Shown here one piece after another: positions 3,739 to 38,399 of a stretch of DNA of 40,908 bases. The first letter of the stretch is position 1; every line of letters begins with the position of its first letter. Under the pieces are notes generated by a model. The model had not been told where the DNA came from. It searched no databases and saw nothing but the letters and a program-made list of their open reading frames with translations. The translations under genes and the position numbers were made by a program. Origin of the DNA: a virus (lineage: Duplodnaviria > Caudoviricetes); the IMG/VR virus record IMGVR_UViG_3300037424_002340, positions 1-40,908 of that record, one strand, 5' to 3'.

Positions 3739-3848
3739 GTCTTGTTGCTGATGACAAGAACTTTCGGATTGGGTGTCATCAGCAACAAAAAGATTGTCTT
3801 GTCCGTTCCGACAACCACTTCCGACAGTTCTGTCGGAACGGACAAGAT
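3739..3848. mobile_element. Two tandem 53-bp hairpin elements (family A), 3739-3791 and 3796-3848
   Basis: Arms GTTGCTGATGACA/TGTCATCAGCAAC and GTCCGTTCCGACA/TGTCGGAACGGAC around a conserved 17-nt loop; first copy flanked by GATT on both sides. Confidence 0.8.
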
Positions 3849-3851
3849 ACT

Positions 3852-5204
3852 CTATTTTTCCAACTGTTCCGAAGCCACTATGAGAGCTTCGGTATAACCA
3901 ATCTTGCGTTCTATAGCTATCTTTTCCGCAAGTTCGGCAACATCAATACCATCAAGAGCAAGAGTTTTTTCATTCTCGCTCATAAAGACATCGCGGTATT
4001 GTTTTTCTTTTCCCTTCGCATCTTGCTTCCCTCGCTGTTGTGAAAGCTCCGCAAATTGTACGACATTCGGCAATGCGTCGAGTACCTTGAAAAGCAATTC
4101 AGATTGTTTCAAGTCTTGCGAAGTTCCATTGTCGCTATATTTTAAAACCTTTGTTTCGTCAAAGGAAAGCAACAACGTTGACAACGCAACCTCTTGAACC
4201 GGGAGCACTTTACCACTTTCTTTATACTTAGCAATCGACGCTTTGATACCTTCGACTCGTTGGGTCTCTTTTATTTGTGCGGCGTCTGCTTCCAATTTAG
4301 CTACCCGATCCGCCTTCGATTTGAGTTCAGCTTGCAACTTTGCAATCTCTTGCTCAGTTGTTGGTTTCGGGTCATCTGCCATTATTAAACCCCCTTTATT
4401 TCGGTCAAAATTTTCGTTGTAACAGGCAATTACTGAAGTGAACACTTCATTATTGAATAATGCTTCTATGTCCGGGAGAGACTTTATCGCCGGTATATCC
4501 GCACCCAAAAGCGCAATCGCACTCAAAGTCAGGCCGTATTTTTGTCCTTTGTCATCCTGAAAATCCGCGTAAATCTCCGCCGAAGGACGCTGGTATGCTT
4601 TGCTTTTCAATAATTCGTAAATTCGCTTAGGAATATTCTTTATATCGGCATAAAGAACTTGGCCAACTTTCTTAAGTTTATCTATCCAACCAGCCGCGGG
4701 ATAGCCTTCATCCCTCAGAAACTTCTGGCCGCCATGACCTAATTTCAGGACTGGCTTCACTTGAGGTTGAAGTGAATAGAAATTTGATACAAGTCGGTCT
4801 AAGTCAGATTCGGAATATGTTCTCCCGTTGTGGGTCCCTGACTTGAAAAATGGGAAATCCTTGAGCTCAAATGTTTCACTCTTTTTGTCCGTTTCAACAA
4901 GAACTTTCGGAATTGGTGTTGAAACGGACAAGACACTCATCATGTCGATTTCGTCAAATTCCGCCATTTTTTCATTTTCGCTTCGCTTCACCCATTTGCC
5001 ACCTTCGACTTTGTACATTCGCCTGAAATTTGTTATCGCTATCGCCGCCGGGCTGTCTATTCCTTCTGTACCTTTTAGCCCATCAAACATCCGAGCAATT
5101 TCGTTCGCTTGCTCTAATGTCAGGTCTATTTTATTTTCTCCGCCGGGTTGGGGCGCTAATGAGCGAAATTGAGGCGGAACATCCTCTATTTTTTCATACG
5201 GCAT
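3852..5204 (-). CDS. Prohead protease/scaffold fusion (Mu gpI-like protease, possible ChaB-like N-terminus)
   Basis: LKLGH, PAAGWI, SAEIY, IALLGADIPAIKSL protease motifs; coiled-coil C-terminal half; AGGAG RBS before MPYEK. Confidence 0.85.
   Translation of the reverse strand: MPYEKIEDVPPQFRSLAPQPGGENKIDLTLEQANEIARMFDGLKGTEGIDSPAAIAITNFRRMYKVEGGKWVKRSENEKMAEFDEIDMMSVLSVSTPIPKVLVETDKKSETFELKDFPFFKSGTHNGRTYSESDLDRLVSNFYSLQPQVKPVLKLGHGGQKFLRDEGYPAAGWIDKLKKVGQVLYADIKNIPKRIYELLKSKAYQRPSAEIYADFQDDKGQKYGLTLSAIALLGADIPAIKSLPDIEALFNNEVFTSVIACYNENFDRNKGGLIMADDPKPTTEQEIAKLQAELKSKADRVAKLEADAAQIKETQRVEGIKASIAKYKESGKVLPVQEVALSTLLLSFDETKVLKYSDNGTSQDLKQSELLFKVLDALPNVVQFAELSQQRGKQDAKGKEKQYRDVFMSENEKTLALDGIDVAELAEKIAIERKIGYTEALIVASEQLEK
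4882..4934. mobile_element. Family A hairpin element inserted in-frame in the protease gene
   Basis: TTTTT-GTCCGTTTCAACA-loop-TGTTGAAACGGAC-AAGAC flanked by ACTC on both sides; 53+4 = 57 bp = 19 codons (VLSVSTPIPKVLVETDKKS). Confidence 0.85.
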
Positions 5205-5271
5205 TTTACTCAACTCCTATGAATCGCGAATCTCCCTCTCCCTGAAAACGTCCCTTGTACTCAGCAACGGA

Positions 5272-5321
5272 CAAACAAAAACCCCTCCTACGAGATCTCG
5301 TTTTTCCCGCGGGAGGGGTTT
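5272..5321 (-). terminator. Putative intrinsic terminator
   Basis: AAACCCCTCC ... GGAGGGGTTT stem followed by TTGTTTG on the minus strand; loop is long. Confidence 0.5.
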
Positions 5322-5387
5322 ATTATAAAGATTGCCCAAAAGCAAGCACAGCAGGGATAGCTAAGGGCGACCATAATTGTACCATAT

Positions 5388-5676: not shown

Positions 5677-6133
5677 GAAAGTACTCCAATTCTTTTTTTA
5701 GGTCAGCATTCTTTTCTCGAAGCTCTTCATTCATCTTGCATTCAGTATCCATCATCTTTTCATAGGTGCTTATCAACATTTCGTATTGTTGGTTTTTCAA
5801 GATGAGTTTACTAATTTCTTTTTTTGTAGCTATTTTTCTCCAACAAGCATGACAAAAAACCTGACCATCTTCAATATTCCCAACCCTTTTGCCGCAAAGA
5901 ACGCAGATATAAAAACTGCGTCTTTTGCAGTTAGCGCATAAGTGTTTGCCTTTTGGAATGATCGCTCCGCATTTCCGGCAGGTTTTCACTCGCGGCGCGG
6001 ATGGCTGAATGTGCCAAGTTAGTTGTTTCCATAACCGCCTACATGTGGGACGCGAACAACAAATCCTATTTTGCCAACCGCGATAAATCAATCCACATAT
6101 TGGGCATTTTTTGTCTATATAGGGCATATTCAC
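5582..6133 (-). CDS. Cys-rich multi zinc-ribbon protein with coiled coil
   Basis: Repeated CxxC pairs (CPIC, CRKC, CANC, CVLC, CHAC). Confidence 0.65.
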   Translation of the reverse strand: MNMPYIDKKCPICGLIYRGWQNRICCSRPTCRRLWKQLTWHIQPSAPRVKTCRKCGAIIPKGKHLCANCKRRSFYICVLCGKRVGNIEDGQVFCHACWRKIATKKEISKLILKNQQYEMLISTYEKMMDTECKMNEELREKNADLKKELEYFHEKSYSASTTRIDIIYSKHNALPTSDDFRVE

Positions 6134-6163
6134 GAATTACGAATTACGAATTACGAATTACGA
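6132..6163. repeat. Heptamer tandem repeat (ACGAATT)n
   Basis: About 4.5 copies; relatives near 16571-16602, 33284-33320 and 37735-37768/37962-37991. Confidence 0.85.
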
Positions 6164-6411
6164 GGTCCGAATTGCAAAAACATATCACATTCTCGTATTA
6201 AAGTCCCGTCCCAATGATACCATCTTTGAGTTCCGAATGTTGCTTCCTTCATATCAGTAACACGATTCCCCTTTTCATCATACATCCAGGTAACAATCAC
6301 ATAATCACCGGAAGGCTCCAAAAAACTCGGCACATTCTCAAATCGCATGTATGACAGAAAATCTTTTGTCTTTAAATGACTTGTCTCAGTTGGCATATTT
6401 TTGATAGTCAA
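6151..6411 (-). CDS. Hypothetical protein
   Basis: 86-aa ORF with plausible RBS; PSGDY..YDEKGN..DGTLIRE pattern. Confidence 0.6.
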   Translation of the reverse strand: MTIKNMPTETSHLKTKDFLSYMRFENVPSFLEPSGDYVIVTWMYDEKGNRVTDMKEATFGTQRWYHWDGTLIRECDMFLQFGPRNS

Positions 6412-6475
6412 TTCCTTAACTCCCCCCTAAACAGTGAAAATTTTCTTAATTAGTTCGCCTTGCCGATAATACAAA

Positions 6476-6729
6476 TATGTTTGTCCGTTGGCCTCTTTTG
6501 ATTGTCGATTGTTGATTGTTGATTGTTGATTGGTAATTCTTTTCAATCATCAATCGCCAATCATCAATCATCAATCTAAATAGGGGATTTGATGAGTGTC
6601 TTGTTGCTGATGACAAGAACTTTCGGAACGTCCCGATTCTCGGGATCCCGCTCCCGTTTCGGGATCCCGTAAGCGGGAAAGGCGGGAGGTGTCATCAGCA
6701 ACCAAAAGAGTACAAGGGACAAAACATAT
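6476..6729. mobile_element. Composite nested palindromic element (family C shell, heptamer element, family A hairpin with loop insertion)
   Basis: Ends match the reverse complement of 25724-25853; 6478-6693 recurs at 17728-17943 with 2 mismatches. Confidence 0.8.
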
Positions 6730-7310: not shown

Positions 7311-7396
7311 ACTAACGTCTCCTTGCTAAAACCTGCGTCTGGTTTCAACCCCGCCGGCACCGGCGGAGAAATCACATAATTTAGATTTGATGTTAC
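7307..7396 (-). pseudogene. Relic copy of the last 29 codons of the portal-MuF gene
   Basis: VTSNLNYVISPPVPAGLKPDAGFSKETLV* versus VTSNLNYVISQPVPAGVKPDAGFSKGTLI* at 8006-8095. Confidence 0.85.
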
Positions 7397-7471
7397 AGTG
7401 CCCCAGTGCCCCAGCGCCCCAATGCTCCAAATTCGTCCCTCCCGTTTCGGCATCCCGAGAATCGGGACTTG

Positions 7472-10270: not shown

Positions 10271-10282
10271 ACGTACTCCTTT

Positions 10283-10600
10283 CTACAACTCTACAGTTAG
10301 TTGTTGGGGTTGTTTAACTTTTCGATGCTTTTTCACTTTTTTGGTATCACGCACAAAGTTGTCGTAGTCTTCTGGTCCCAGAGTTTCCTCTAAAGTACCT
10401 CTTAAAAAATTTTGCCCCATAGTAGACTCATAAAAAATAAATAAAGGATGCCAGCGAGAAATACGCTCAGGCGAAATAATCCCTGCAAGCCCACTCTTGG
10501 CCGCAATAAACTGCGCATCTCTGAGATTTTGTACTTTTCGGATTATCAAACATTCACCTTCTACACGATAAAAATATAAGGCGTCTTCTTCTAATTTCAT
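10283..10600 (-). CDS. Hypothetical protein
   Basis: 105 aa; ATGA-coupled to the DHH gene. Confidence 0.65.
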   Translation of the reverse strand: MKLEEDALYFYRVEGECLIIRKVQNLRDAQFIAAKSGLAGIISPERISRWHPLFIFYESTMGQNFLRGTLEETLGPEDYDNFVRDTKKVKKHRKVKQPQQLTVEL

Positions 10601-11541
10601 ATCTCAATCCTTTTGACATCCTTCGAGAATGGAAGTTCATCACAAACAAAGCCCGCTGCACCTCTATGCCCTCCACCTCCATGTCTGACTGCTATCTCAG
10701 ATACATCTATTGTTTCAGAATATAACCCGATAATCCACTTGTCACCAGTAAACTCAAATGATATCAGTAAAGGATACTGCTTTATTCGTTCCCCAAACGC
10801 TTTGCTTCCGCCACGATACATCCCCTGCGCGAACGTCTTGTGCCCTTCAAATGTAGCTTCAAAACCGTAAGCATTGCAATAATCATTGCTTATCATATTG
10901 TCGTATTGGACACAAGTTATTCCTCGTTCGATTATACGGGCTATCAATGAACCGGCATTTCTGGAAAGCAATTGTACCCATACTTCATCTGTTGGTTGAT
11001 GCGAGTATAACTTCATTCCAGTTGTAAAATTCTCGGTTTCCTCATAGTCCCATATCCATCTATCCATATCATCAATTAGTTGGATAGCTTTTGGGATAAT
11101 AATCTTTGCGTTATCATCGAAGTATTCTGCCTTCATCTCAAGAAGGACAAAATATTCCCATGTGAGCCAGCACCCAGAACGCGCAGAAGTGATAATAGAT
11201 TCAATGTTAGAATACAATTCGGGATGCTTTTCTCGATGTTCTACTGTACTTTTGTGATGGTCAATTAAGGTAATATTCTGTGTAATCGCTTGAAGTTTTC
11301 TGAAATCATCATCATTCTGAACATGAAAATCGACAATATAAATCTGTTCATTTATACTGATTGAATCAAGCGGGAACTCACGGCTATATTCCATTTCAAT
11401 AAATTCATACGCATCTATCTTTTCGTTACTACTGGTGGAAGAGCGTCGTCTATCGGCCTTTAACGACTTTCCTTCTCGAAAATGATTTATGACCGCACCC
11501 GCGGCGCGCCCATCCAAATCATTGTGGTGGAAAACTTTCAT
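10597..11541 (-). CDS. DHH/DHHA1 family phosphoesterase
   Basis: HNDLDG, IVDF, LIDHH and GGGGHRGAAGF motifs. Confidence 0.92.
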   Translation of the reverse strand: MKVFHHNDLDGRAAGAVINHFREGKSLKADRRRSSTSSNEKIDAYEFIEMEYSREFPLDSISINEQIYIVDFHVQNDDDFRKLQAITQNITLIDHHKSTVEHREKHPELYSNIESIITSARSGCWLTWEYFVLLEMKAEYFDDNAKIIIPKAIQLIDDMDRWIWDYEETENFTTGMKLYSHQPTDEVWVQLLSRNAGSLIARIIERGITCVQYDNMISNDYCNAYGFEATFEGHKTFAQGMYRGGSKAFGERIKQYPLLISFEFTGDKWIIGLYSETIDVSEIAVRHGGGGHRGAAGFVCDELPFSKDVKRIEI

Positions 11542-11670: not shown

Positions 11671-12072
11671 CTATTCATTCTCGTTCACACCCCCACCTTC
11701 TTTTAATAATAAGTTGATATTTCGGGACATCTCATCCATTCGTGCATCATTTAAATAAAGATGGTTCTCAATCCGATAGATTCTCTGATAAAAGTCTGTT
11801 TTGTCCCTTGTGCTCGGTAATGCCCCTATTAGTTGATGTGTTGACGAGGCCAACGGACAAACATTAGTCTCCGCTTCTTCTTGCTTCGGGTCAAAAATAT
11901 TTTTCAATTTCTCATAAAATGTCCGCAAATGCACCTTATCACACCAATAGCCAAAACGATTTGTATGCTCAGGTTTAGCTTCTAAACTTGTGAACTCAGA
12001 GCCTTCAACAAAATCGGCTATTTGGACAAAATATCTGTCTTTCTTTTCATCGTAGTTCACAATGAACATCAT
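11671..12072 (-). CDS. Hypothetical protein containing element-derived segments
   Basis: 133 aa; GGAGG RBS; 11797-11863 matches the family C element. Confidence 0.6.
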   Translation of the reverse strand: MMFIVNYDEKKDRYFVQIADFVEGSEFTSLEAKPEHTNRFGYWCDKVHLRTFYEKLKNIFDPKQEEAETNVCPLASSTHQLIGALPSTRDKTDFYQRIYRIENHLYLNDARMDEMSRNINLLLKEGGGVNENE

Positions 12073-16655: not shown

Positions 16656-16771
16656 GTTTTGTCCAAAAAACACCCCATCCGCGACAGGCGGTTTTTCACC
16701 GCAGATAACCACAAGTTCTTGTTTTTTGGACAAGACATCTTTTTGTCCTTTTGACAGAAACTTTCGGAATG
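16656..16771. mobile_element. Family A hairpin with loop insertion, plus an adjacent half element
   Basis: Arms GTCCAAAAAACA/TGTTTTTTGGAC; the loop insert recurs inverted near 37905-37934. Confidence 0.75.
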
Positions 16772-16820
16772 AGTTTGTTGGTATCAAATTCGGTTACTTT
16801 TAAGTCCGGCATATTCAATC
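16766..16820 (-). repeat. Exact 55-bp duplicate of the ParB-methyltransferase 5' end (15557-15611)
   Basis: GGAATGAGTTTGTTGG...CATATTCAATC identical at both sites. Confidence 0.93.
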
Positions 16821-17683: not shown

Positions 17684-17956
17684 TTTTTGTCCGTTTCACA
17701 CCTCCCGCCTTTCCCGCTTACGGCATCTGTTTGTCCGTTGGCCTCTTTTGATTGTCGATTGTTGATTGTTGATTGTTGATTGGTAATTCTTTTCAATCAT
17801 CAATCGCCAATCATCAATCATCAATCTAAATAGGGGATTTGATGAGTGTCTTGTTGCTGATGACAAGAACTTTCGGAATGTCCCGATTCTCGGGATCCCG
17901 CTCCCGTTTCGGGATCCCATAAGCGGGAAAGGCGGGAGGTGTCGGAATGGACAAGA
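17684..17956. mobile_element. Composite nested palindromic element
   Basis: Contains the 216-bp duplicate of 6478-6693; outer inverted repeat ACACCTCCCGCCTTTCCCGCTTA / TAAGCGGGAAAGGCGGGAGGTGT. Confidence 0.8.
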
Positions 17957-17963
17957 CACTCCT

Positions 17964-19845: not shown

Positions 19846-19990
19846 TTTTTGTCCGTTTCACAAAAGATTCCGAGTGGGTGTGAAACGGACAAGACAATCT
19901 TTTTGTCCGTTTCACAAAAGATTCCGAGTGGGTGTGAAACGGACAAGACAATCTTTTTGTCCGTTTCACAAAAGATTCCGAGTGGGTGTG
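19846..19990. repeat. Tandem array of 2.7 identical 54-bp family A hairpin units
   Basis: Units at 19846, 19900 and 19954; 50-bp hairpin plus AATC. Confidence 0.95.
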
Positions 19991-25469: not shown

Positions 25470-25757
25470 ATGAAAGTTAAGTTTGAGACAAAGTGCGAAA
25501 TCTGTGGAAAGGCACTCCCCGTTGGTTCAGAGGCGGAGGGCATAAAAGAGGAAAAATGGTATTTTTATTGTCCCGATTGTTTCCAAATCTACGAAGACGC
25601 AAATAAATTCTACGATTTTTTGGAAACTTCAGACAAAAGCCGCGAAATCAAAAAGGAAATGCGGCAATATGTCAATGAGAATCATTGTCCTCGTGAAGTG
25701 GCCGAAGCGATAATGTTTCGGAAATATTTTTGTCCCTTGTACTCTTTTTGTTGCTGA
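25470..25757 (+). CDS. Small zinc-finger protein
   Basis: AGGAGG RBS; CEIC...CPDC; last codons run into the family C element. Confidence 0.7.
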   Translation: MKVKFETKCEICGKALPVGSEAEGIKEEKWYFYCPDCFQIYEDANKFYDFLETSDKSREIKKEMRQYVNENHCPREVAEAIMFRKYFCPLYSFCC

Positions 25758-25853
25758 TGACACCCAATCCGAAAGTTCTTGTCATCAGCAACAAGACACT
25801 CAGCAACGCCCCTATTAATAGGGGATTTGACGAGGCCAACGGACAAAACATAT
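25724..25853. mobile_element. Family C element carrying a nested family A hairpin (25745-25797)
   Basis: Inner 53-bp hairpin flanked by ACTC on both sides; uninterrupted shell at 11797-11863. Confidence 0.82.
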
Positions 25854-27684: not shown

Positions 27685-27735
27685 GTCTTGTCCAAAAAAC
27701 AACCAATTCCGAAAGTTCTGTTTTTTGGACAAAAA
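27685..27735. mobile_element. Family A hairpin element (51 bp)
   Basis: GTCTT-GTCCAAAAAACA-loop-TGTTTTTTGGAC-AAAAA. Confidence 0.8.
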
Positions 27736-27862: not shown

Positions 27863-28807
27863 CTACTGATGTTCGGGATAATCCAAAAGTTGTTTCTCAA
27901 TTAATGTATTCCCCAGGGAGGCAACATTCGGACCCGCCGCAAGATTCGCCTTCCTGACAATTTCCTCTATATCGCACTCGCCCCACAAAAACGCAACAAC
28001 CGCAAAAAACGAATCTCCCGCCCCGGTAACGTCAAAAATCTCTCTTTCTATTGTCGGAATGCGCCTCCCTGCATTCCTTTCAACTGAATAGTACGTCGCC
28101 CCTTTGCCACCAAGAGTAATAATACAATTCTGGATACCTCTTTCTTTGACAACCTTTTCGGCATAGAGGAGAGAATTGCCCAGAACTTCCTCTTTGGGGA
28201 CCGAAAAAGAAGCAGCGATTTCTTTGTGATTTACCACCGCGCAAGCGCAATCAGGCAAGCCATCAGTGCGCCTATATCCGTTCCAATTGTATTTCACGGC
28301 TATGATTATTGGAATGTCCTGGCATTTTTCTCGGACATACAAGATATTTTCATCTGAGAGAAGCCCCTTTTGATAATCACTGAATACAACTGCCTCAATA
28401 GTTGACAAATCCTGCTTCTCGAAAGTGCTGACGAATTGAGAATGAGGTAAATTGCCATCCTCAACCGCGAGACGCAAGATGTGCTGATGATAGTTTTCAT
28501 CAATCAGACGAATTTTCTGACAGGTTTTGCCATGTATGATTGAATGAAATTGAATCGATTGGAATTTGAGCCCATATTTGCGTAATTGGGCAATCGAGCA
28601 AACATCTATATCAGTTTTGCAGATGAACACTCCCGCGACGCCGAGATTGTCGAGAATCCATGCGACGTTCGCCGCGCCACCGAGTTTGTGTTCAATCTTG
28701 CCATTGAGTTTAAATTCCATCACGGGAGCTTCTGGAGAGATTTTTTCCACCGAACCAAAAATATACGAATCCAGGATAAAATCACCTATTATTAGAAATC
28801 TTTTCAT
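27863..28807 (-). CDS. hldA: Heptose 7-phosphate kinase (stand-alone HldA/RfaE domain I, PfkB family)
   Basis: GDFILDSYIFGSVEKISPEAPV, LGGAANVA, SDYQKG, DVTGAGD, ANLAAG. Confidence 0.92.
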   Translation of the reverse strand: MKRFLIIGDFILDSYIFGSVEKISPEAPVMEFKLNGKIEHKLGGAANVAWILDNLGVAGVFICKTDIDVCSIAQLRKYGLKFQSIQFHSIIHGKTCQKIRLIDENYHQHILRLAVEDGNLPHSQFVSTFEKQDLSTIEAVVFSDYQKGLLSDENILYVREKCQDIPIIIAVKYNWNGYRRTDGLPDCACAVVNHKEIAASFSVPKEEVLGNSLLYAEKVVKERGIQNCIITLGGKGATYYSVERNAGRRIPTIEREIFDVTGAGDSFFAVVAFLWGECDIEEIVRKANLAAGPNVASLGNTLIEKQLLDYPEHQ

Positions 28808-28821
28808 ATATTATGTTTCCC

Positions 28822-30969
28822 CTATGTAGCGGCATATTCCTCCGCCACAAGTTCGCTTTGGCGTCCTAAGAGGTCGTCTCTTTTCTCGATAATAAAGAAA
28901 TAGCGGTCTTCTATGCCGATGCCATCATCAGTGACTTTGATAACTTCTCCCAACTCCGCGTCAAGGCCATCGCCAGAGCCATATAAATTCGATGTTCCAA
29001 ACGTAATCACATCGGGGGGCTGCTGATAGCGAAAGAGCAACTGGCCAGAGATATTCAGCAAAACGCTAGTATCAACTTCCCATCCAGTGCTTAACTCCAA
29101 AGGACGGTAGCCATACTGTGCGATTGAGGCCACGCCCAGGGTTGGTCCATATTCGTTATTCGCTTGACCATACGTCCACTTGACGTAATTAATAACATCG
29201 CGGCGCGATGGATGGAGTCTAAAATTCATAATTTTTCGATCATCCCTCGTCTCACTCCCAATGAAATGTTTTTCAAGACCAGTAGGCAGAACACTGGGAT
29301 ATACCTTAGCCTTAATTCTGCCATTCCCGTTTGTGTAAATCCAGCCCTGTACGAGTTTGAGTGCATCCTGAATCATTTGAATAATACTACTCTCTGCCGG
29401 CCAGGTAGTGTCGTTGACTACATATGTAGAGCAAGCAGTGTACGCCGCATCAAATGAATTAGGGTCACATGCCGCAACGAAAGTTTCGGTACTGAAATCA
29501 AACACCTCAGCTCCTAAAACTTCATTAATGAGATATTCCACAATATGAATGGGATTGAGCGATTCCAAAGGTGTCGTATCAACCAAATTCTGGTCAAACG
29601 TAATCGCTGTTGCCAGCTTGCCATCAATGATCTCTTTTAGGATATCTACAATCACGAAATTGCAACTTCTCGCTTCCGTCAATTCCAAAGTCTCCACCAA
29701 TCCCTGAAATTGCGCTTGCACATTCTGGTCTAAATCAACCCCCCACCCACAGGTTATTTTAGCCCATGTCCAGATATACTTGCTTGTCGGATAGAAGTCG
29801 CCGTCAGGATGCAGATATGTATGGACTTTATCGGAGTTTTCACATACAACATCTACATTGCTCACTTGAGTTATTCCAAAAGATTTACCCAGGTATCTCC
29901 GAATGACCCCTATGCTTTCAACCCTATTTGTATAGTCGTGAATTTCCGATTCGTCGGCTTCGTAAATAAGAAACATCGGCGAGGGTATGACCAGGATAAT
30001 CTTTACTTGATGGTCTATGTCCACCGAATCTGGTGTTGTAAAAATATTGACCTGGTGGTCAATATCGGTTGTATCAGATGAGTAAATTTCAACATGGTGG
30101 TCAATATCGACCTCATCCGCCTCATAGATTTGCACCTGGTGGTCGATGTCAACCTCATCAACTGAATAGATTTGCACCTGGTGGTCGATGTCAACCTCAT
30201 CAACTGAATAGATTTGCACCTGGTGGTCGATGTCAACCTCATCAACTGAATAGATTTCCACCTGGTGGTCGATGTCGGTTTCGTCAGAGGAGTAGATTTG
30301 AATCTGGTGGTCAATGTCGAGCTGTGTGATGACCTCAGCTTCCGATGGTAGGTCAGAATGCCAATCAGGAAGTCCAACATTCCCGATAGCCGGTAACAAA
30401 AATCCAACAAGATGAATTTGTTCATCTATGTCACAGCGATATTCCTCATAAATCTGAACTTGTTCATCAATATCGGTTTCATCATTCTCGAAAATCTGGG
30501 ACTGATGGTCAATATCGGTTTCAAGATTCTCGTAGATTTGTTCATGGTGGTCAATATCTGTTTCAGCAGCATCGTAAATCTGGTTTTGATGGTCAATGTC
30601 CGAACTGAGTGGAATCCAAACGACGATTTGATGGTCTAAATCTACCGCATAAGATTCGTAAATATTGACTTCATGGTCTATGTCAATGGAATCAGCATCA
30701 TAAATCTGTTCCTGGTGGTCAATGTCCGAACTGAGTGGAATACAAACGACGATTTGATGGTCTAAATCTACCGCATAAGATTCGTAAATATTGACTTCAT
30801 GGTCAATGTCTGTTTCAGTAGCATCGAAAATCTGGACTTGATGGTCTATATCAACAGAATAATCTTCAGCAGTCGTGATTACTTCACCAGTCGAATAGCA
30901 ATCATCTGTTTCCGTAGCCGTAGCCGTATAAATCGTTATCCTGGAATATAGGTCTTTTGTATCGCTCAT
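28822..30969 (-). CDS. Putative tail tip/hub protein with N-terminal acidic 14-aa repeats
   Basis: 19 D(I/L)D(H/E)xxxI-type repeats; C-terminal SIAQYG..ELGEVIKVTD resembles tail hub proteins. Confidence 0.7.
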   Translation of the reverse strand: MSDTKDLYSRITIYTATATETDDCYSTGEVITTAEDYSVDIDHQVQIFDATETDIDHEVNIYESYAVDLDHQIVVCIPLSSDIDHQEQIYDADSIDIDHEVNIYESYAVDLDHQIVVWIPLSSDIDHQNQIYDAAETDIDHHEQIYENLETDIDHQSQIFENDETDIDEQVQIYEEYRCDIDEQIHLVGFLLPAIGNVGLPDWHSDLPSEAEVITQLDIDHQIQIYSSDETDIDHQVEIYSVDEVDIDHQVQIYSVDEVDIDHQVQIYSVDEVDIDHQVQIYEADEVDIDHHVEIYSSDTTDIDHQVNIFTTPDSVDIDHQVKIILVIPSPMFLIYEADESEIHDYTNRVESIGVIRRYLGKSFGITQVSNVDVVCENSDKVHTYLHPDGDFYPTSKYIWTWAKITCGWGVDLDQNVQAQFQGLVETLELTEARSCNFVIVDILKEIIDGKLATAITFDQNLVDTTPLESLNPIHIVEYLINEVLGAEVFDFSTETFVAACDPNSFDAAYTACSTYVVNDTTWPAESSIIQMIQDALKLVQGWIYTNGNGRIKAKVYPSVLPTGLEKHFIGSETRDDRKIMNFRLHPSRRDVINYVKWTYGQANNEYGPTLGVASIAQYGYRPLELSTGWEVDTSVLLNISGQLLFRYQQPPDVITFGTSNLYGSGDGLDAELGEVIKVTDDGIGIEDRYFFIIEKRDDLLGRQSELVAEEYAAT
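29995..30855 (-). repeat. Coding 42-bp (14-aa) repeats with a 126-bp higher-order duplication
   Basis: Near-exact 42-bp units at about 30125-30275; 30591 and 30717 offset by 126 bp. Confidence 0.92.
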
Positions 30970-31244
30970 TGGTAAATCTCATGTTTGTGCTCTACTTTTG
31001 TTCCATCTGGTAACTCATACCCGATAGTTTCTGATATATCTTTCATCATCGGCCTGCCCGATTCTATCATTGCCGTTTTGTAAAAAATAGCTTTTGTGCC
31101 TTCGGGTATATCAAGCGTGACATTTCCACACTTGAGAGTTTTTATCCTCTCAAGGAAATCCTTCTCCATTGCCCTTTTTATATGGAGGTCGAACCCCTTA
31201 TATATTTTCAGGACACCATGTTCTAAAACTGTTGCTTCAATCAT
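30966..31244 (-). CDS. Hypothetical protein
   Basis: 92 aa; ATGA-coupled in the tail operon. Confidence 0.65.
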   Translation of the reverse strand: MIEATVLEHGVLKIYKGFDLHIKRAMEKDFLERIKTLKCGNVTLDIPEGTKAIFYKTAMIESGRPMMKDISETIGYELPDGTKVEHKHEIYQ

Positions 31245-31253
31245 TTATTTTCC

Positions 31254-32699
31254 TCACGCGTAATCAAACTTAACCCTATAAACAAAGTCCTTGTCACCAT
31301 CGGTTTCGTCATTTCCAATAGCATTTACCAGGTAAATATATTGAGACGTATCGGCATGCCCGACGCCGGTGATATTTCCACCGCCTATTTTAGTCAAATT
31401 AGCCGCTGGCTCGGCTTGAGGACAAGTTCCAGGCGTCCCCGCCTTCACTTGTGCGGGCGTCTTATTTTGCGTCCACGAATCGGTAATGTCGGCATGATAA
31501 GTATTTGTTCCGACAAATTCAGATAAATCATAAGCCCAGAACCGCATATTTGATAAAGTGGAATAAGCCCCTAAATTCGTAGCTCGCCAGATGATGCATT
31601 TTACATTTGAATCATTACCTTTGGGCATCTGACCGAAATTGAGAGGATTTACTTGAGTTACTGCTGAGCCTTCTGAAGTTCTATCCGCTGGTTCAGTGCC
31701 CGCGACATTGAAACTGCGGAATTGGGTAAGGATTGCGGGATTGAGAGCAAAGAATAGACTAAGGTAAGCGGCACCGCCCGCTGGGATACCGCCTTGATTA
31801 TTCCATGTCTGGCCACCATCAATTGATTTCCAGCATTTTAAAGAACATATATATCCCACGCTATCTGAAATAAACTTAATCGGACATCTTGTATCGCTTA
31901 TGGAAGCTCCACTATCGGCAACATCAACTTTATTCCATGTTGTACCACCGTCTGAAGAATATGCTACCTCAATTTTAGAAAGATTTCTTCCAGTTGCCCA
32001 GACCATCCCAGACTCAGTAGCATAAAGTCTTTTTCCTTCAATAGTTTTACCACCTGTTCCCTTATTAACCCAGGTAGAGCCTCCATCTGTACTTTTCCAT
32101 ATACATCCAGCGGCGTTACTCTCTAAAAGATATATTGTACTTGTATCCACAGCAAATACACAATATGGAATATAAGTAAAATTACTCTTTAAAACTGACC
32201 AATTATTTCCTCCATCAGTAGTTTTCCATACTGAATTCGTTAGTACGCCGCCTGAATGGATATATCCACACATATAGCCTATTAAATTTGAAGCCATGTG
32301 AATATAGTAAATATATCCAGAAAGAGTTGCGCCTGGCGCTTGCCATATCAGGTTCCATGTTACTCCATTATCGGAAGAATAATGTACTCTCTCAGATCTC
32401 CCAACCATCCATACCTTGTTTTCATCAGTTGGTGAAAAACAAGCAAAATGAATAGCACTCGTCGCAACAGGAGTATAGACTTCGGCAAAAGTTAAACCGC
32501 CATCAGACGAACGATAGATTTTAGTTGCCCCTCCGATAAGAAATACTGATTGGTCGTTAGTTACGAGAGCTCCATTAGGCTCACTAACATCACCAGCATT
32601 GACATAATGATTAGTAAAAGATACACCATCATCATTAGAAACTTTAATTGTAATAGCTCCAGAAGGGCTACTAGAGCGAGTAAAAGAAAAAATTCTCAT
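31254..32699 (-). CDS. BNR/Asp-box beta-propeller tail protein (putative receptor binding) with C-terminal beta domain
   Basis: Seven SxDxGxxW/F-type boxes (SNDDGVSF, SSDGGLTF, SSDNGVTW, TTDGGNNW, STDGGSTW, SSDGGTTW, SIDGGQTW). Confidence 0.85.
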   Translation of the reverse strand: MRIFSFTRSSSPSGAITIKVSNDDGVSFTNHYVNAGDVSEPNGALVTNDQSVFLIGGATKIYRSSDGGLTFAEVYTPVATSAIHFACFSPTDENKVWMVGRSERVHYSSDNGVTWNLIWQAPGATLSGYIYYIHMASNLIGYMCGYIHSGGVLTNSVWKTTDGGNNWSVLKSNFTYIPYCVFAVDTSTIYLLESNAAGCIWKSTDGGSTWVNKGTGGKTIEGKRLYATESGMVWATGRNLSKIEVAYSSDGGTTWNKVDVADSGASISDTRCPIKFISDSVGYICSLKCWKSIDGGQTWNNQGGIPAGGAAYLSLFFALNPAILTQFRSFNVAGTEPADRTSEGSAVTQVNPLNFGQMPKGNDSNVKCIIWRATNLGAYSTLSNMRFWAYDLSEFVGTNTYHADITDSWTQNKTPAQVKAGTPGTCPQAEPAANLTKIGGGNITGVGHADTSQYIYLVNAIGNDETDGDKDFVYRVKFDYA

Positions 32700-32714
32700 T
32701 TCTTTCTCTCCATT

Positions 32715-32844
32715 TTTTTGTCCATTTTACAACCATTCCTTTAGGTTGAGTTTATCGAAACCAAAGTTATGTAAAATGGACAAGACAATTTTTTTGTCCA
32801 TTTTACAACCATTCCGAAAGTTATGTAAAATGGACAAGACAATT
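32715..32844. mobile_element. Two tandem family A hairpins; the first has a loop insertion
   Basis: Arms GTCCATTTTACA/TGTAAAATGGAC; second unit 50 bp flanked by AATT. Confidence 0.8.
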
Positions 32845-32856
32845 TCATTTTCCAAA

Positions 32857-33270
32857 TTAACTCGCATACCCCTTACAAGTTATCCTGATACACAAATCCT
32901 GTTTATTTTCAGCCGCGGTCGCCGCGGGCACAGTCATTCTTTCCCAGAACGTGAAACTGGCTGCCGGGTTCAAATCTGAGCCATACGCAAGAGCGGCTCC
33001 CGGAGTAGCGCCCGCCAACCCGCCCTGCGTCAAGGCAAGTTTCGTCCATGTCGATTCATCGCTTCCAACACGGTCATAAGGTGTGAGAATTAGATTACGG
33101 ATGATAAGGTCACCATCATTCCGGAACCAACATTGCACATCCCTTGTCTGCCCTACATCGCCGTCAAAATCTATTGGTGGATACCTGAAAATAGGGTCGC
33201 TCATATCCTGATCTTTTGAGTAGGCGTCAAGAAAATAGCTATCTTTATATACATTTACAATAACTGACAT
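32857..33270 (-). CDS. Putative tail structural protein (Ig-like)
   Basis: 137 aa, AGGAGG RBS, WFRNDG..FTFWERMTVPA. Confidence 0.65.
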   Translation of the reverse strand: MSVIVNVYKDSYFLDAYSKDQDMSDPIFRYPPIDFDGDVGQTRDVQCWFRNDGDLIIRNLILTPYDRVGSDESTWTKLALTQGGLAGATPGAALAYGSDLNPAASFTFWERMTVPAATAAENKQDLCIRITCKGYAS

Positions 33271-33330
33271 TTTCTACCTCCTTGTACGAATCACGAATTA
33301 CGAGTTACGAATTACGAATCGAATTCGTCG

Positions 33331-33705
33331 TTACCGTTCTAATAACATAACTTCAATATTATACCGCCCACCTCTCTGGAGAGCGGCTTTAAAATCGTTA
33401 ATCCAGTAAACATCCCAATAAAAGGGATTCGCCGAATCGGGGTAATAGCGGAATCGCCCCTCTTGAAAAAATGTCCGTAGCTCGGTAATCATTGTCTCAG
33501 GCACATAATAGAAAAAGAACGTCCAGGTATTTTTCGTTGTTAGCAATTCTCGCTCAATGATTACCTCATTGCGAGTATGCTCTATGGTATATGCTATCTG
33601 ATTAATACCATAGGCGAGTTCCGAGCGGTCTGACGGCAGCGAAGGATATTCCTCCCAGATATAGGGGTCCGTTCCATCTCTTTTTTCAAATTTTGGCAAT
33701 CCCAT
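33331..33705 (-). CDS. Putative distal tail protein
   Basis: 124 aa immediately after the tape measure gene; aromatic-rich beta pattern. Confidence 0.6.
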   Translation of the reverse strand: MGLPKFEKRDGTDPYIWEEYPSLPSDRSELAYGINQIAYTIEHTRNEVIIERELLTTKNTWTFFFYYVPETMITELRTFFQEGRFRYYPDSANPFYWDVYWINDFKAALQRGGRYNIEVMLLER

Positions 33706-33719
33706 TTACGAGATTCCTC

Positions 33720-36700
33720 CTATCCACTTACCCAATTTTCCTGCAATTCCTCTGTATACGGTTGAAGTTTTCGTGCCAGCTCCCGCATTGCTTCGGGATT
33801 ATCAAAGTTTACCAAGCCTGAGAATTGATTGTTCTGAATGAATGTCACCCCCGGCCTTGTTTCTACCACATCGGAGACTTGAGGTGGCTTGCCCCTTAAC
33901 ATCAGTGATTCAGCGTCGGGGGTGGCAGTTGTGGTTGTCTTAGGATACCCTGCGCCCAGTTGGTCAAAATATTCTTGCTGTGGTTTCATCAATATATCAC
34001 GCATAGTAATATCATCAAGCGCCTGCGTGCCCAAGAGTCCTACTTTGGTAAATTCCATCCAGTCAATGGCATCTTGTTGCGCGGTGCGTGATTGGCGAAC
34101 TTGTAAATCCAGCATATCAACCGCGGTCATCAATTTTTCCGTGTTTTCGCCATATACTTGAACTAACTGTTTTCGGTATTCATCAATTCGTTGCTTCTCC
34201 AATTCGGAAACAATACCATCTTGAAAAGCGGCAGCGATATACTCGCCCAGTTCTTGAGCTAATTGAATAATCTCTGGAGACTTAGTAAAGACCGCAACTA
34301 ATTGTTGGAAAATCATTTCATCGAGAGTATTGGCGAAATCCTCAAGCGGCTTAATCACAGCATCGGGGTCAAACATGGATTTCCACAAATTAGTCCAGGA
34401 AGTTCCTAAAGAGGATTGTAACGTTTTGGAAAACTCCTCACCAGCGGAGACAATCTTTTCAGCGCTTTGGGTAATACTTTTTGCCGCATCCTCAGTAGCA
34501 TCCTTTTGTACTCCACGGATTTGCAAATCAAGAGCATCAACGGCTAACATTATTTTTTCTGTAGTTTCCTGATATTCTTTTGTCAACCATGCTCGATAAC
34601 GGTCAATTTCAAACTTCTCTTTTTGCGAAATGATACCATCATTGAGGGCAAAGGCGATATATTCACCTAATTGTCGGGCACGTTCCATCAATTCAGGCGA
34701 TGTAGCAAAAACATCAACAAGTTGCTTGAAGATCATTGATTCAAGCGTCTCTGCAAAACTTTCCAATGGGTCCATGACTGAATCGGGGTCAAATAAAGAT
34801 TGCCATAGGTCATTCCATGAACTTTCTAAGCCTGGGCGTAGGGCTTCGGCAAAATCTACCCCCATAAGAAGAATTTCTTTTATTTTCTCGAGACGTTTCT
34901 GAGATTCAGCACTAGAGGCGCTTTCTACCATAGACTTCCACCACTCACGATTTTCTTTGCTTGGCATCACCAATCCGCCAGCGGTATATGTCATCATTTG
35001 AGCATATATTTTGTTGATTTTCCGCAAGGATTCAGCATCCCCTTGATGTGTTTTGATTAATAATTGATATTCCTCATTAAAACTACGAACTGACTGTTCC
35101 CCTTTATTGAAATTAACCGCAATGCCAGACCAAATATCTTCCCAGGCTTTACCTATTGCCATTCCTTCACCAACAGTAATATTGCCACTTTTCGCGACAT
35201 TTTGCAATTCTTTAAAGGCATCGGTTAAAGTACCTATATCGGTTTTTAGGGAACCAATTGAAATTTCAAGACTGCCAAAATAACGATTAATTTCTGCTAA
35301 TGTATCAATAATATCATCTTTTGTTCCTATCGTTGCATCAGAAGTCAATTCTTTCCACCCCATCATCACATCTTTTACGGTCTCCTCGAAGCCAAGGTCA
35401 GTAAGCTCTTTCATCCTCTTTTGATGTTGCGCTGTCCGCGTTTCCTGGATTTTAAAATAAGTCTCGGTTATGCCAATTTTAATGTTTGCGGTATCCTTAT
35501 GATATTGCCTTGCCTCTTCTTCGGCTTTTTGTTGCACCGCGGCATTGTCATTCCAATAATCAGCCCGTGCCTTCGTTTCCTCTTGTAATTGGACGATGGC
35601 TTCTCGCTCGGCTTGTTTTCGATATTCCGCCTCCGCTTTCGTAGCCGCTACGCTTGCCTGGACCCTATTCTTTACCCATTCATTTAACCTTTTCTGGCTT
35701 TCCTCAGCGTCTTTCTTGATAGCCTTATTTATTTTTTCTGTTTCTTCCTCAAGAATCTTATTTCTTTCACCAATAAATACCTGATCTACTGCTAATTTCT
35801 GTTGGTTTAACGCCTGTCTTAATTGCACTTCTGCAGTTGAACTTCCCTTTATTGCGGCAAGTCGTTTATCTATATCCTCTATCTCTTTTAGATGTCTTGC
35901 CTCAAGTATCTTTATTTCGTCACCGGATAATTTAGCTAAAGCATCTCGAGCTTCTTGCCTCGCATCGAGAGTATCCTTTTCAATTTTTGCTATTTCTTTT
36001 TCCTCAAGGACAATAGTCTTATCAATCTTTGGCAAAGGCGGGAGTTCAACTCGTAATCCTCTTTGTTGTTCTGCTTGCTCTATTTCACCCATCAATGCGT
36101 TATATTCCTGTCGCAAACCACGCACCTTTTCCGCTTGTTCTGCCATCCCACTAATGAAACGAGTTCTTGACCTTGTTGACATCTCGCCAAAACGTGTTTG
36201 GACTGTATACTCTTGTCTTCCAACATCGCCAAGTTGCTTATTCAGTGATTCCAGCGTTCCCACTTCTTTCCCTAATTGCTTCCCTAATTCACCCGCTCTC
36301 TGTTTAGCGCGCAGAACAAGAATTTCGCGTTCGATGTCCAAAAGTTTATATTGCTCAGCGGCATAATCAATAATCTCTTTCTTGGAGCCTGCCAGCGCCC
36401 GACCTTGCTCATCATATCCCCTTATCAATGTCGGCGATATTTCCGCAAGTTTTGCTTGCACTTCATATAATCTGTTAGATTCAGTTTGAGTAAGATTAGT
36501 TTTAGATTGCAATTCCCCTAGCTCTTTTGCCAGCCCAGTAATTTGGCCAACATTAGCCATCTCATCATTTAATTTCCCTATTGAACTAGAAAACTTTTCA
36601 ACTGTTATGATTGAAGCATTATAGTCGGCGCGAAGCGCAAGAAGTGTTGCGGCAAGCAACCCTATCGCGGTAATCGTTAATCCAATGGGATTTGTGGCTA

Positions 36701-37730
36701 AAAACGACAACGCGCTTCCTAGCGCTGGAATTACACTGGTTGTAAGGACTGTCATCCCGGCAATGAGGGCTGGGAGAGCTAAACCTAAACCTGCTAAACT
36801 TGCCGTAATTGCAGCAAGGCCCCCCACAACCACGCCCGACCATGTAATCAAAGATTTTGTTGTATCTGATAATTGATTAAACCAACCTACCAAATTCGTC
36901 AACATGCCCAACACTTGCGTAAAAACTGGCAACAACACTTGCCCAGCCGCGACCTTTGCATTGAAAACAGCATCATTGAAGTTTTCTATTTCATTTCGTG
37001 ATCCGCCTATTACTCTCGGTAATTTTTCAAAGCCGCTCACCAAAGTTGCAATGAAACTTTCAGCCGAAAGATTCATTTTCTGAATTGCTTCAGTCGAAGC
37101 GGTCCCGAACGCTTCCATCATCACTTTCCGCACTTCGGGAACACGCTCGGCAATCTGATTAATCTCCTCTGCGGTAACCTTGCCTGCGCCAACGATTTGC
37201 GTCAATGCAAGAATAACTCCCGAAAGTTCCTCACGTCCCTTGCCAACGCGTGCAAGCGCGTTCCCAAATTCCATCAATGCCTTGTTTGCTAATTGAGCAT
37301 TGATGCCAACCGCTTGCAACCGTGTTGAACCCTGAATCGCTTCCTGGAGTCCCAGACCAGGAAGTTTAGCAATCTCGCGCAATTCCTTCATTTGGGCATT
37401 GGCTGCCTGAGCGCTCCCCGCAACCGATGCTAACCCTAATTTGAGAGATTCCATCTCAATAGCCGCGTCGAGCGATGATTTTGCTACCAACAGCACCGCC
37501 CCTGCCACAATGCCAGAGGCAACAGCAATCGTTTTCAATCCATCTGCAAACGCCCGTGCTTTTTCCGAACCTTCCTGCATTCCCTTGACATAATCAGAGA
37601 TTGCCTTTTTGGCTCCGGCAACGGAAGTTTGCATATTGCGGACCGAGTCGCCAAACGCTTTAGAAATTTTGCCAAAGCCAGCGGAAGCCCTATCGGTTAA
37701 TTTCATTAAGATGGTAACTTCTTTGTTCAT
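33720..37730 (-). CDS. Tail tape measure protein
   Basis: 1336 aa; ALTQIVGAGKVTAEEINQIAER tape-measure domain, LATNPIG hydrophobic segment, long coiled coil. Confidence 0.93.
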   Translation of the reverse strand: MNKEVTILMKLTDRASAGFGKISKAFGDSVRNMQTSVAGAKKAISDYVKGMQEGSEKARAFADGLKTIAVASGIVAGAVLLVAKSSLDAAIEMESLKLGLASVAGSAQAANAQMKELREIAKLPGLGLQEAIQGSTRLQAVGINAQLANKALMEFGNALARVGKGREELSGVILALTQIVGAGKVTAEEINQIAERVPEVRKVMMEAFGTASTEAIQKMNLSAESFIATLVSGFEKLPRVIGGSRNEIENFNDAVFNAKVAAGQVLLPVFTQVLGMLTNLVGWFNQLSDTTKSLITWSGVVVGGLAAITASLAGLGLALPALIAGMTVLTTSVIPALGSALSFLATNPIGLTITAIGLLAATLLALRADYNASIITVEKFSSSIGKLNDEMANVGQITGLAKELGELQSKTNLTQTESNRLYEVQAKLAEISPTLIRGYDEQGRALAGSKKEIIDYAAEQYKLLDIEREILVLRAKQRAGELGKQLGKEVGTLESLNKQLGDVGRQEYTVQTRFGEMSTRSRTRFISGMAEQAEKVRGLRQEYNALMGEIEQAEQQRGLRVELPPLPKIDKTIVLEEKEIAKIEKDTLDARQEARDALAKLSGDEIKILEARHLKEIEDIDKRLAAIKGSSTAEVQLRQALNQQKLAVDQVFIGERNKILEEETEKINKAIKKDAEESQKRLNEWVKNRVQASVAATKAEAEYRKQAEREAIVQLQEETKARADYWNDNAAVQQKAEEEARQYHKDTANIKIGITETYFKIQETRTAQHQKRMKELTDLGFEETVKDVMMGWKELTSDATIGTKDDIIDTLAEINRYFGSLEISIGSLKTDIGTLTDAFKELQNVAKSGNITVGEGMAIGKAWEDIWSGIAVNFNKGEQSVRSFNEEYQLLIKTHQGDAESLRKINKIYAQMMTYTAGGLVMPSKENREWWKSMVESASSAESQKRLEKIKEILLMGVDFAEALRPGLESSWNDLWQSLFDPDSVMDPLESFAETLESMIFKQLVDVFATSPELMERARQLGEYIAFALNDGIISQKEKFEIDRYRAWLTKEYQETTEKIMLAVDALDLQIRGVQKDATEDAAKSITQSAEKIVSAGEEFSKTLQSSLGTSWTNLWKSMFDPDAVIKPLEDFANTLDEMIFQQLVAVFTKSPEIIQLAQELGEYIAAAFQDGIVSELEKQRIDEYRKQLVQVYGENTEKLMTAVDMLDLQVRQSRTAQQDAIDWMEFTKVGLLGTQALDDITMRDILMKPQQEYFDQLGAGYPKTTTTATPDAESLMLRGKPPQVSDVVETRPGVTFIQNNQFSGLVNFDNPEAMRELARKLQPYTEELQENWVSG

Positions 37731-37734
37731 TCTC

Positions 37735-37991
37735 GAATTACGATGTACGAATTACGATGTACGAATTGAAAAACCCTGGTTCTCTAAAGTGTCAAACGGA
37801 CAAACATAAGAACTTTCGGAATGGGAGTTCACCAACGCCCGAAGCGGGCTTATGGTGTCAAAAGCAACAAAAAAAGTTCTTGTCGAAACGGACAAAAAAA
37901 GTTAGTGGTTATCTGCGGTGAAAAACCGCCTGTCTGTGAAACGGACAAAAATAAGTTTTTTCAATTCGTACATCGTAATTCGAGATTCGTA
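37735..37991. repeat. Degenerate nested element cluster bracketed by inverted heptamer tracts
   Basis: GAATTACGATGTACGAATTGAAAAA mirrored by TTTTTCAATTCGTACATCGTAATTC; contains family A loop and arm fragments. Confidence 0.75.
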
Positions 37992-37997
37992 CTTTCC

Positions 37998-38399
37998 TCA
38001 CCTAAATCCTCTTTTTCCTACCTGCTTCGCGTTTGCAATTCTGGATTGTTGTTGCATCTTGTTTATTGTATCCTCTTGTTGTTCGCGCTCATATTCGGTT
38101 ACCAGACCGTGAATGATTTCAAAGATTTGCATAGTGATTTCCTCCTGGTCGAGGATACCGCCTGCTGATGGCAACTGCATATCTTTAAATCGCCGACATC
38201 TGAAATAAAGAGACAGTGATTGAGTTACAAGGGATGGTGGAGTGTCATCTGATTGTTGATTGTTGATTGTTGATTGCTGATTGTCTTGTTGCTTTTGACA
38301 GAAACTTTCGGAATGGTTGTCAAAAGCAACAAAAAGATTGTTTTCCAAATCATCAATCGACAATCGACAATCGACAATCGGATGGAGGAGCTCCATCAC
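37998..38399 (-). CDS. Tail assembly chaperone (second ORF) with in-frame element insertion
   Basis: LPSAGGILDQ motif typical of the ORF before tape measure genes; 38251-38379 is repeat-derived. Confidence 0.65.
   Translation of the reverse strand: MMELLHPIVDCRLSIDDLENNLFVAFDNHSESFCQKQQDNQQSTINNQQSDDTPPSLVTQSLSLYFRCRRFKDMQLPSAGGILDQEEITMQIFEIIHGLVTEYEREQQEDTINKMQQQSRIANAKQVGKRGFR
38251..38379. mobile_element. Heptamer inverted element containing a family A hairpin (38283-38335)
   Basis: 129 bp = 43 codons; inner 53-bp hairpin flanked by GATT. Confidence 0.8.

Follow-up and report, generated by a model that had tools for sequence, protein, structure and literature searches.

The DNA analysed here, referred to as the window, is a complete virus record of the Caudoviricetes (IMG/VR IMGVR_UViG_3300037424_002340, our G000) with a length of 40.9 kb. 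It carries genes of a tailed phage. Pfam identified portal, capsid, tape measure and tail tube proteins among 45 open reading frames (ORFs), and PHROGs added terminase and head maturation protease. The intergenic DNA is dense in several repeat families, and this report concerns one of them, a gene-less hairpin element of 50–53 nucleotides (nt). In a preliminary description this hairpin was interpreted either as a non-autonomous element mobilised in trans, with no transposase in the window, or as a structured RNA motif. The family scans agree on the lack of an enzyme, since no transposase or integrase family was found among the window ORFs (45 with Pfam, 26 with PHROGs). The sole candidate for a window-encoded mobiliser, a 103-amino-acid resolvase/endonuclease-like ORF (21525–21836), has no link to the hairpin copies and was rejected.

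Hairpin copies in the window

Twelve copies in the window possess both ends; nine of them are simple and three carry an insert in the loop. In addition there are a composite of 274 bp, two cut copies and a cluster of halves. Each of the eleven positions listed in the preliminary description holds the unit. We counted 13 perfect inverted-repeat pairings of at least 11 bp that are bounded by TTGT...ACAA. They correspond to 11 units, two of the pairings being alternatives within tandem arrays, and 100 order-3 Markov controls yielded a mean of 0.05 and a maximum of 1. A covariance model recovered the nine simple copies at E<1e-11. The individual copies are:

3739..3791, minus strand: complete intergenic copy with arms of 15 bp, flanked by GATT at either end
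3796..3848, no strand assigned: complete copy forming a tandem with 3739 and abutting the protease stop codon; both ends are of the GAC type and the loop has decayed
4882..4934, plus strand: complete copy flanked by ACTC at either end; it contributes 19 codons in frame to the head maturation protease ORF 3852-5213, which is on the minus strand
6598..6707, minus strand: copy whose loop holds a second hairpin repeat of 57 nt, one arm mismatch, inserted in an element of sister family B
16656..16736, plus strand: copy with perfect 14-bp arms, 47-nt loop holding another repeat
16740..16773, plus strand: partial copy that retains the left end, the arm and the loop and forms a tandem with 16656
17684..17957, plus strand: composite of 274 bp bounded by a left end on one side and a right end on the other; it holds a block of 219 bp that is 99% identical to 6475-6693 and contains an inverted half copy (17848)
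19846..19990, plus strand: tandem array repeating every 54 bp, with complete copies at 19846 and 19900 and a cut one at 19954
25745..25797, plus strand: complete copy, ACTC on both sides, inside a family-B element; uninterrupted B copies lie at about 5250 and 11800
27685..27735, minus strand: complete 51-bp copy, no exact duplication, 55 bp with four flank bases, intergenic
32715..32786, plus strand: copy with a 22-nt insert in the loop (38-nt loop), in tandem with 32791
32791..32840, plus strand: complete 50-bp copy, AATT on both sides, intergenic
37790..37951, no strand assigned: cluster made up of half copies and fragments of loops, among them an end of subtype 2
38283..38335, minus strand: complete copy, GATT on both sides, inside a heptamer-repeat hairpin

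Several details of the preliminary description need adjustment. The arms do pair, but with TTGT counted they comprise 14–15 bp rather than 12–13 bp, and the copy at 6598 has one mismatch. The loops at 16656 and 32715 measure 47 and 38 nt, and the one at 6598 holds a 57-nt insert. The ends are fixed in general with the exception of copy 3796, and the loop indeed occurs in both orientations relative to the ends.

The third copy of the array (19954) stops within its right arm, as after an adjacent deletion, and it ends a C5 methyltransferase ORF (19966-20319) at 117 amino acids. The 219-bp block of nested repeats occurs twice in the window (17684-17957, 6475-6693), once between the left and right ends of the element, and cargo capture or gene conversion are possible explanations for this duplication. 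Contigs of run X1, possibly the source sample, match the window base for base from 30775 to 38500. In the run contigs that match the window, no clean skip of a copy was seen.

Arms, junctions and reading frame

Further copies were collected with a pattern that consisted of the loop and the right arm and did not demand complementarity. It matched 5 viral, 7 GTDB and 119 metagenome stretches (long flanks were available for 80 of the 119). The pooled set, which includes the window, comprises 140 overlapping sequences with 516 kb, and 139 distinct simple copies were extracted from the window and from contigs of related phages, metagenome-assembled genomes (MAGs) and metagenomes. The unit reads TTT, a 14–15-bp arm that begins with TTGT and ends with ACA, a loop of 16–18 nt, the complementary arm and GAC. 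Its polarity is fixed, with TTT on the left and GAC on the right outside the repeats in 118 of the 139 copies. The base following GAC is an A in 110/118 type-1 copies, which gives TGTC on the other strand.

The arms of 137 of the 139 copies are perfectly complementary, and 31 different arm sequences were observed. The regular expression that defined this set fixes seven anchor bases per arm, and the arm test was therefore rerun from the loop alone. Here, 129 of 132 stem-forming copies were perfect over 14 bp and three had one mismatch; 15 stemless loop matches (nested or cut copies) were set aside. Among 97 distinct stem-loops, 8 of 15 pairs vary, and in 1385 cells we counted 191 two-sided changes, not a single one-sided change and one unpaired position. 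Shuffles gave 45 two-sided changes and slid partners at most 25, although related copies do not represent independent events. A one-base difference in arm length is mirrored in both arms, and G-U pairs are lacking among the arm changes. The covariation noted in the preliminary description is strong, but its lack of G-U pairs argues for a cause at the DNA level. The arms and the loop were probably shaped by DNA-level copying and not by selection for an RNA.

Empty sites indicate that the unit moves. Among 95 copies with non-family flanks, six have empty counterparts with unique flanks (L062/L097, L074/L081, L091/L077, L110/L264, L087/L080, L114/L030), and three further empty paralogues lie in heptamer repeats. 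In addition, a copy in contig L043 adds exactly 18 residues when compared with three empty orthologues (P0078, P0079, P0081). With these data the unit is almost certainly a mobile element, and its classification as a non-autonomous one is borne out. Protease orthologues were also compared at the window copy 4882, and there the insert falls in a hypervariable linker. In the relatives P0003, P0005, P0006, P0008 and P0010, the linker of this protease (window 3852-5213) holds an extra domain of about 100 amino acids.

The flanks are identical over exactly 4 nt in 60/118 type-1 copies (7.6 expected). When the 118 junctions were fitted, 87 followed a 4-nt frame, 23 a 3-nt frame and 8 neither. The middle two junction bases are equal in 87/118 copies (29 expected). 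At position 1, 14 of the 87 copies in the 4-nt frame are unequal and the right copy then carries A in all 14. Position 4 is unequal in 17/87 copies, where the left copy has C in 12 cases and never G; it is equal in the other 70 (36.6 expected). At the empty sites L097, L080 and L030 the edge bases are absent from the target, and the overlap at the six unique-flank empty sites amounts to 3–4 nt with a constant part of 1–3 nt. The unequal edge positions and the empty sites together indicate that the constant duplication is a core of 1–3 nt and that the element can bring neighbouring bases, namely one before the core on the right copy and one after the core on the left copy. A plain 4-bp target duplication, as in the preliminary description, is not supported by these junctions. 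The commonest cores are CT (31), AT (27) and TT (21), and the core mostly ends in T.

The target motif is weak (about C-A-N-T-Y), with the left flank contributing roughly 3 bits. Family motifs were found within 45 nt of 46/136 copies, and tandem or nested insertion extends several levels deep. We rejected a general preference for hairpin loops, since only 7/90 non-family flanks were of this kind as compared with 8% of random sites. In 12 tandem copies the spacing between the repeats is 10 nt in eight cases, 9 nt in three and 11 nt in one.

The element had also been described as preserving the reading frame, with an inserted length that is a multiple of three. The inserted lengths are 54 (36 copies), 55 (30), 57 (29), 56 (10) and 53 (5), so that 65/110 units obey this rule but 45 do not. 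Within long ORFs the length is a multiple of three in 24/27 copies, a figure that is partly circular; outside, where most copies are located, the proportion is 35/75 (p = 0.011 against one third). In this tally 28 copies were unclassifiable and 9 classifiable ones lie at contig edges. Across the unit 374/546 frames are free of stop codons, whereas mononucleotide shuffles, which keep the hairpin but do not control for dinucleotide content, gave 187 (maximum 224). Coding compatibility thus holds in part, and the preservation of the frame is a survival bias with some enrichment at the family level, not a rule. Copy 4882 is the only window copy in frame within a gene. Relative to the genes, strand use is 26:14 inside ORFs and 19:13 between co-directional ORFs, and many copies are positioned at gene ends.

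Loop inversion and the mechanism of movement

The loop orientation relative to the polar ends is split 75:50 among the perfect GAC-ended copies, and both orientations were seen for most of the common arm types. Two copies, L121:657 and one in L116, have common flanks (88/92%), arms and ends but carry the loop inverted. This pair suggests inversion in place, but a single pair is no proof. Template switching between short inverted repeats is reported to homogenise arms and to invert spacers (PMC8604942). It would explain covariation without an RNA, and inversion of the loop at the same site is what it predicts.

The explanation we favour is that this gene-less DNA of 50–53 bp, found in Poribacteria and phage contigs, would be excised as a tiny circle and re-inserted by a host recombinase of the IS110/IS1111 kind acting on the 1–3-nt core. 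Template switching by a polymerase would keep the arms paired and flip the loop, and copies that keep the frame and are poor in stops would survive in genes. We infer four of these steps, which are the circle, the class of the enzyme, template switching as the cause of covariation and the survival of frame-keeping copies. The proposal as a whole is possible but stays somewhat short of probable.

When one copy of the core is counted with the left end, 7 or 6 nt lie to the left and 3 nt to the right outside the subterminal repeats. IS1111 elements are reported to have subterminal repeats of 11–13 bp, outside which 7 (occasionally 6) bp remain at one end and 3 bp at the other, and ISEc11 shows an apparent duplication of 4 bp (PMC11187229). 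The joint of a circle would place the repeats 9–10 nt apart, and this is the spacing in 11 of the 12 tandem copies. Moreover, an IS110 enzyme is reported to circularise a gene-less module at a dinucleotide (PMC12288879). Judged from geometry alone, an IS110/IS1111-type enzyme may be ranked first, but tentatively.

A number of observations weigh against this explanation. We found no gene-sized cargo between element ends in the 516 kb of loci, i.e. no autonomous partner, and no circle was observed in the data, which are contigs alone. The target of about 3 bits in the left flank is far below the guide pairing of 8–14 nt reported for IS110/IS1111 (PMC11208160). At position 1, 7/87 copies have a non-A base on both sides, and L074 reads ACGT on both sides while its empty paralogue reads ACTT. 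The core is common to only 14/31 pairs of identical elements (6.1 under the null), and strict inheritance, as predicted for conservative recombination, is not seen. The two copies with the same-site inversion also differ at one edge base and may have arisen by separate insertions. In sister family B three arm mismatches are fixed, so template switching does not perfect every hairpin of the host. Finally, the IS110 element of contig L043, whose gene is the only one of this family beside a copy, was rejected as mobiliser; its own left end reads differently and its fold is no better than those of shuffles (z -1.2).

This IS110-family element occupies L043:45-1394 on the minus strand together with an upstream non-coding region and is inserted in a heptamer-repeat arm. 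The upstream region has a 7-nt match to the right end of the hairpin element, which was spotted post hoc. Its close relatives P0078-P0087 form an undescribed-looking clade, and a search for the context of such relatives found none. The ends of the hairpin element were not present when the four IS110 loci of G001/G003 were read.

An extension of the IS110/IS1111 reading makes the unit a 50-bp minimal donor whose single-stranded loop pairs with the target and sets the core, so that flipping of the loop by template switching would reprogram where it lands. Two observations form the basis of this idea. The core CT is present in 31/75 copies of one loop orientation but in 6/50 of the other (Fisher p = 6e-4), with the same direction in 5/5 contig groups. 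When junctions were compared with the 5' half of the element's own loop the match score was 382, as opposed to 355 for shuffled (p = 0.001) and 338 for flipped loops. A control within orientation gave 376 (p = 0.03), and one of three query lengths was not significant there. The copies are related, and lineage effects may contribute to the link between orientation and core. No position in the element determines the variable core base (best 0.29 of 1.65 bits). We regard a guiding loop as quite unlikely.

Movement as single-stranded DNA would be an alternative. Here, an element similar to repetitive extragenic palindromic (REP) sequences or their hairpin doublets (REPINs) would be moved by a HUH transposase (Y1, or a REP-associated tyrosine transposase, RAYT) or by a hairpin-specific GIY-YIG nickase (Ssn) that reads the stem shape and the 3-nt feet. 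Such an enzyme would keep the structure and leave the arm sequence free. It is also reported that REPIN excision footprints are asymmetric like the ends of our unit (PMC3116915), that TGTC is a listed variant of the CGTC tag (PMC3733652) and that Ssn nucleases cut single-stranded hairpin repeats of the CGTC class (PMC11893778). However, an unguided cut-and-join reaction cannot place a variable target base on both sides, and with 87/118 equal middle bases and no element position that fixes this base the junctions are difficult to reconcile with it. The stem and the loop also exceed the 8–9 bp and 4–5 nt of CGTC-tagged REPs, and no Y1 or RAYT family was detected among the 219 flanking ORFs scanned. 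This alternative appears rather unlikely. One T5orf172/MUG113 ORF (L085) was found among the flanking ORFs.

A conventional miniature inverted-repeat transposable element (MITE) of a DDE transposase would duplicate 2 bp (1–3 bp) by a staggered cut and have its true ends one base further outward (C-TTT... and ...GAC-A). A genuine target duplication suits the poor inheritance of the core, the right end then reads CA, the ends of family B are nearly inverted and the host contigs contain many DDE genes. Low target specificity and self-targeting are common for DDE-type enzymes and also count in its favour. However, the two ends are not inverted repeats of each other in their outer 4 nt, and the left end does not start with TG. 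The arm sequence varies at 8/15 positions, and the edge bases are sometimes target-derived on both sides, as 7/87 copies at position 1 and the 70/87 equal bases at position 4 indicate. In our opinion a DDE enzyme is unlikely.

Spread via an RNA copy, written into a nick by a host reverse transcriptase with the second arm made by fold-back, would yield perfect arms at birth. An A run precedes the duplication and ends one strand, and a group II intron reverse transcriptase is encoded on the element-bearing contig L091. Against this stand the lack of any promoter (sigma-70) or terminator-like site over the copies in window 3600-5000, the length of complete copies, which is fixed at 50–53 without a truncation ladder, and the same-site loop inversion, which points to a change at the DNA level; an RNA intermediate is improbable.

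A structured RNA motif, i.e. a regulatory or processing signal kept by selection for pairing, would fit covariation far above both controls and the many copies at gene ends, but it is very improbable in view of 1385 cells without G-U or other one-sided changes, loops in both orientations on most common arms, use of both strands relative to genes and presence/absence at orthologous sites, and there was no Rfam family at gathering score, the sub-threshold miRNA matches being generic hairpins.

Hosts, relatives and known systems

Four of the seven GTDB matches are real and the other three lack a paired arm. The real ones lie on short contigs, and the MAGs concerned are labelled Pseudomonadota (1 copy), Nitrospirae (1) and Chloroflexota (4-6). 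Our guess is that these labels reflect misbinning, but the element may also have spread across phyla. In a looser viral scan the arms were unpaired in 95/102 matches, and the seven true ones all came from three contigs already in the set. A blastn search with the unit gave no match in plasmids or phages. A LamG protein flanking one copy groups with clusters whose commonest phylum is Ca. Poribacteria. Among ten proteins of element-bearing contigs, the NCBI names were Ca. Poribacteria for seven and Nitrospirae for one, and two were unnamed. From the shared repeats we infer Poribacteria as hosts of the phage. Outside the window, copies are densest on other phage- or plasmid-like contigs (L064, L065, L080, L087, L102, L030, L049, L051, L023).

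Two relatives combine the geometry of the element with other feet. Family B measures 60 bp between the outer repeat ends, carries ATGT and AACA feet, has the three conserved arm mismatches and a variable inner loop; it shares the geometry of the joint, has nearly inverted ends and serves the main element as a target. Subtype 2 (ATGT and GAAA feet) comprises 11 copies, mostly nested in the loops of other copies at up to three levels. Relatives that measure 38 and 34 bp and share the feet, but have shorter loops (10 or 6 nt), were found at L062:1392, in L097 and at L086:321. Another repeat of about 30 nt often lies inside loops of the main element and occurs in frame in genes (window 17055, 37826; L003, L006, L007, L011, L046, L133). 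The heptamer/octamer hairpins are mobile or unstable too, as the related phage G005 lacks the hairpin of 3120-3272 at its orthologous site. The sites of these families are:

Family B: window 6478-6725, 11800-11862, 25727-25850, 5250-5278; L072, L073, L083, L089, L092, L097, L116, L122
Subtype 2: L032, L047, L064, L065, L067, L080, L090, L095, L105
Heptamer/octamer tandem-repeat hairpins: window 2040-2190, 3120-3272, 6126-6165, 6494-6577, 7396-7430, 16570-16600, 27595-27665, 33280-33320, 37730-37770, 38245-38385, 38835-38960

The window also contains coding tandem repeats of 126 nt (1-630, ORF 3-1034) and 42 nt (29995-30870, ORF 28822-30969). Genes for a DHH phosphoesterase, a PfkB kinase and a SIS-domain (heptose isomerase-like) protein are located at 10597-11541, 27863-28807 and 39947-40597, and they perhaps serve sugar modification.

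Among known systems, the IS1111 group resembles the element in several respects. The repeats are subterminal and within 7–17 bp, the extensions are 7 (or 6) nt on the left and 3 on the right (87/118 copies fit 4+3 and 3, 23 fit 3+3 and 3, and 8 fit neither), the apparent duplication of 3–4 nt is centred on a short core and the polarity is fixed. In contrast, our unit has no DEDD gene, and the 16–18 nt between its repeats, which vary at 8/15 positions, leave no room for a seek/bridge RNA; its target carries about 3 bits and is not a long guided site. The ends thus function like an IS1111 pair, but since two defining features are lacking (the DEDD gene, and the seek/bridge RNA region with a long specific target), we did not file the element as IS1111. 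The ssr9 module of ISPpu9 is likewise gene-less and is circularised and spread in trans by an IS110 enzyme at a dinucleotide, but ssr9 encodes a small RNA and lands in REPs, whereas the unit of Poribacteria is a single hairpin of about 50 bp (PMC12288879).

CGTC-tagged REPs, including RPE-4/RPE-6 of Rickettsia and dRS3/NTS of Neisseria, are short palindromes with a (C/T)GTC tag at one end that form clusters, have copies in genes and lack a known dedicated transposase (PMC3733652, PMC11893778). They still have no transposase in the former source. They differ by the shorter stem and loop (compared with 14–15 bp and 16–19 nt here) and a CCA tail, which our unit does not have (PMC3733652); our unit in turn has the core duplication and the invertible loop. 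REPINs with RAYT share two inverted arms with a spacer, an asymmetric footprint, tandem clusters and movement in trans, but the unit lacks a GTAG foot and its arms are not palindromes themselves (PMC3116915). MITEs of prokaryotes and viruses are non-coding elements of 50–800 bp common to hosts and viruses. A survey detected them in 0.01% of viral sequences and makes no mention of Poribacteria (PMC11602168); the phage studied here holds 12 complete copies. The 3–4-nt overlap at the six empty sites falls within the 2–10 bp of DDE-type duplications, but the repeats of the unit are subterminal and not at the very ends. In-frame insertion into intact genes, as seen in 24/27 copies in long ORFs and in the exact 18-residue insert, is shared with the Rickettsia palindromic elements. 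The small dispersed repeats of Nostocaceae are mobile units of 21–27 nt that nest in other repeats and enter genes in frame. Our unit is about twice as long as those repeats and has the core duplication and IS1111-like ends.

No description of this hairpin family was found in the main texts searched, which were mostly from outside subscription journals; repeat families are also tabulated in the supplements of PMC11602168 and PMC3733652 and could bear on its novelty. Very small palindromic repeats with nested copies and with in-frame copies in genes are already known as a kind. Within this kind the family is a new variant on account of three features, which are ends of the IS1111 type on a unit of just 50 bp, arms that covary strictly and a loop that can be inverted.

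How repeats of 20–60 bp move is a long-open question, and this family offers unusually precise junctions, empty sites and ends whose geometry suggests a testable class of enzyme. It also cautions that perfect covariation without G-U pairs can stem from DNA copying rather than from RNA structure. The repeat adds inserts of 18–19 residues to proteins, and in practical terms it ties the phage to Poribacteria. If an IS110/IS1111 enzyme does move it, the unit would represent a minimal donor of bridge-type recombination that occurs in nature and whose arms can change in sequence.

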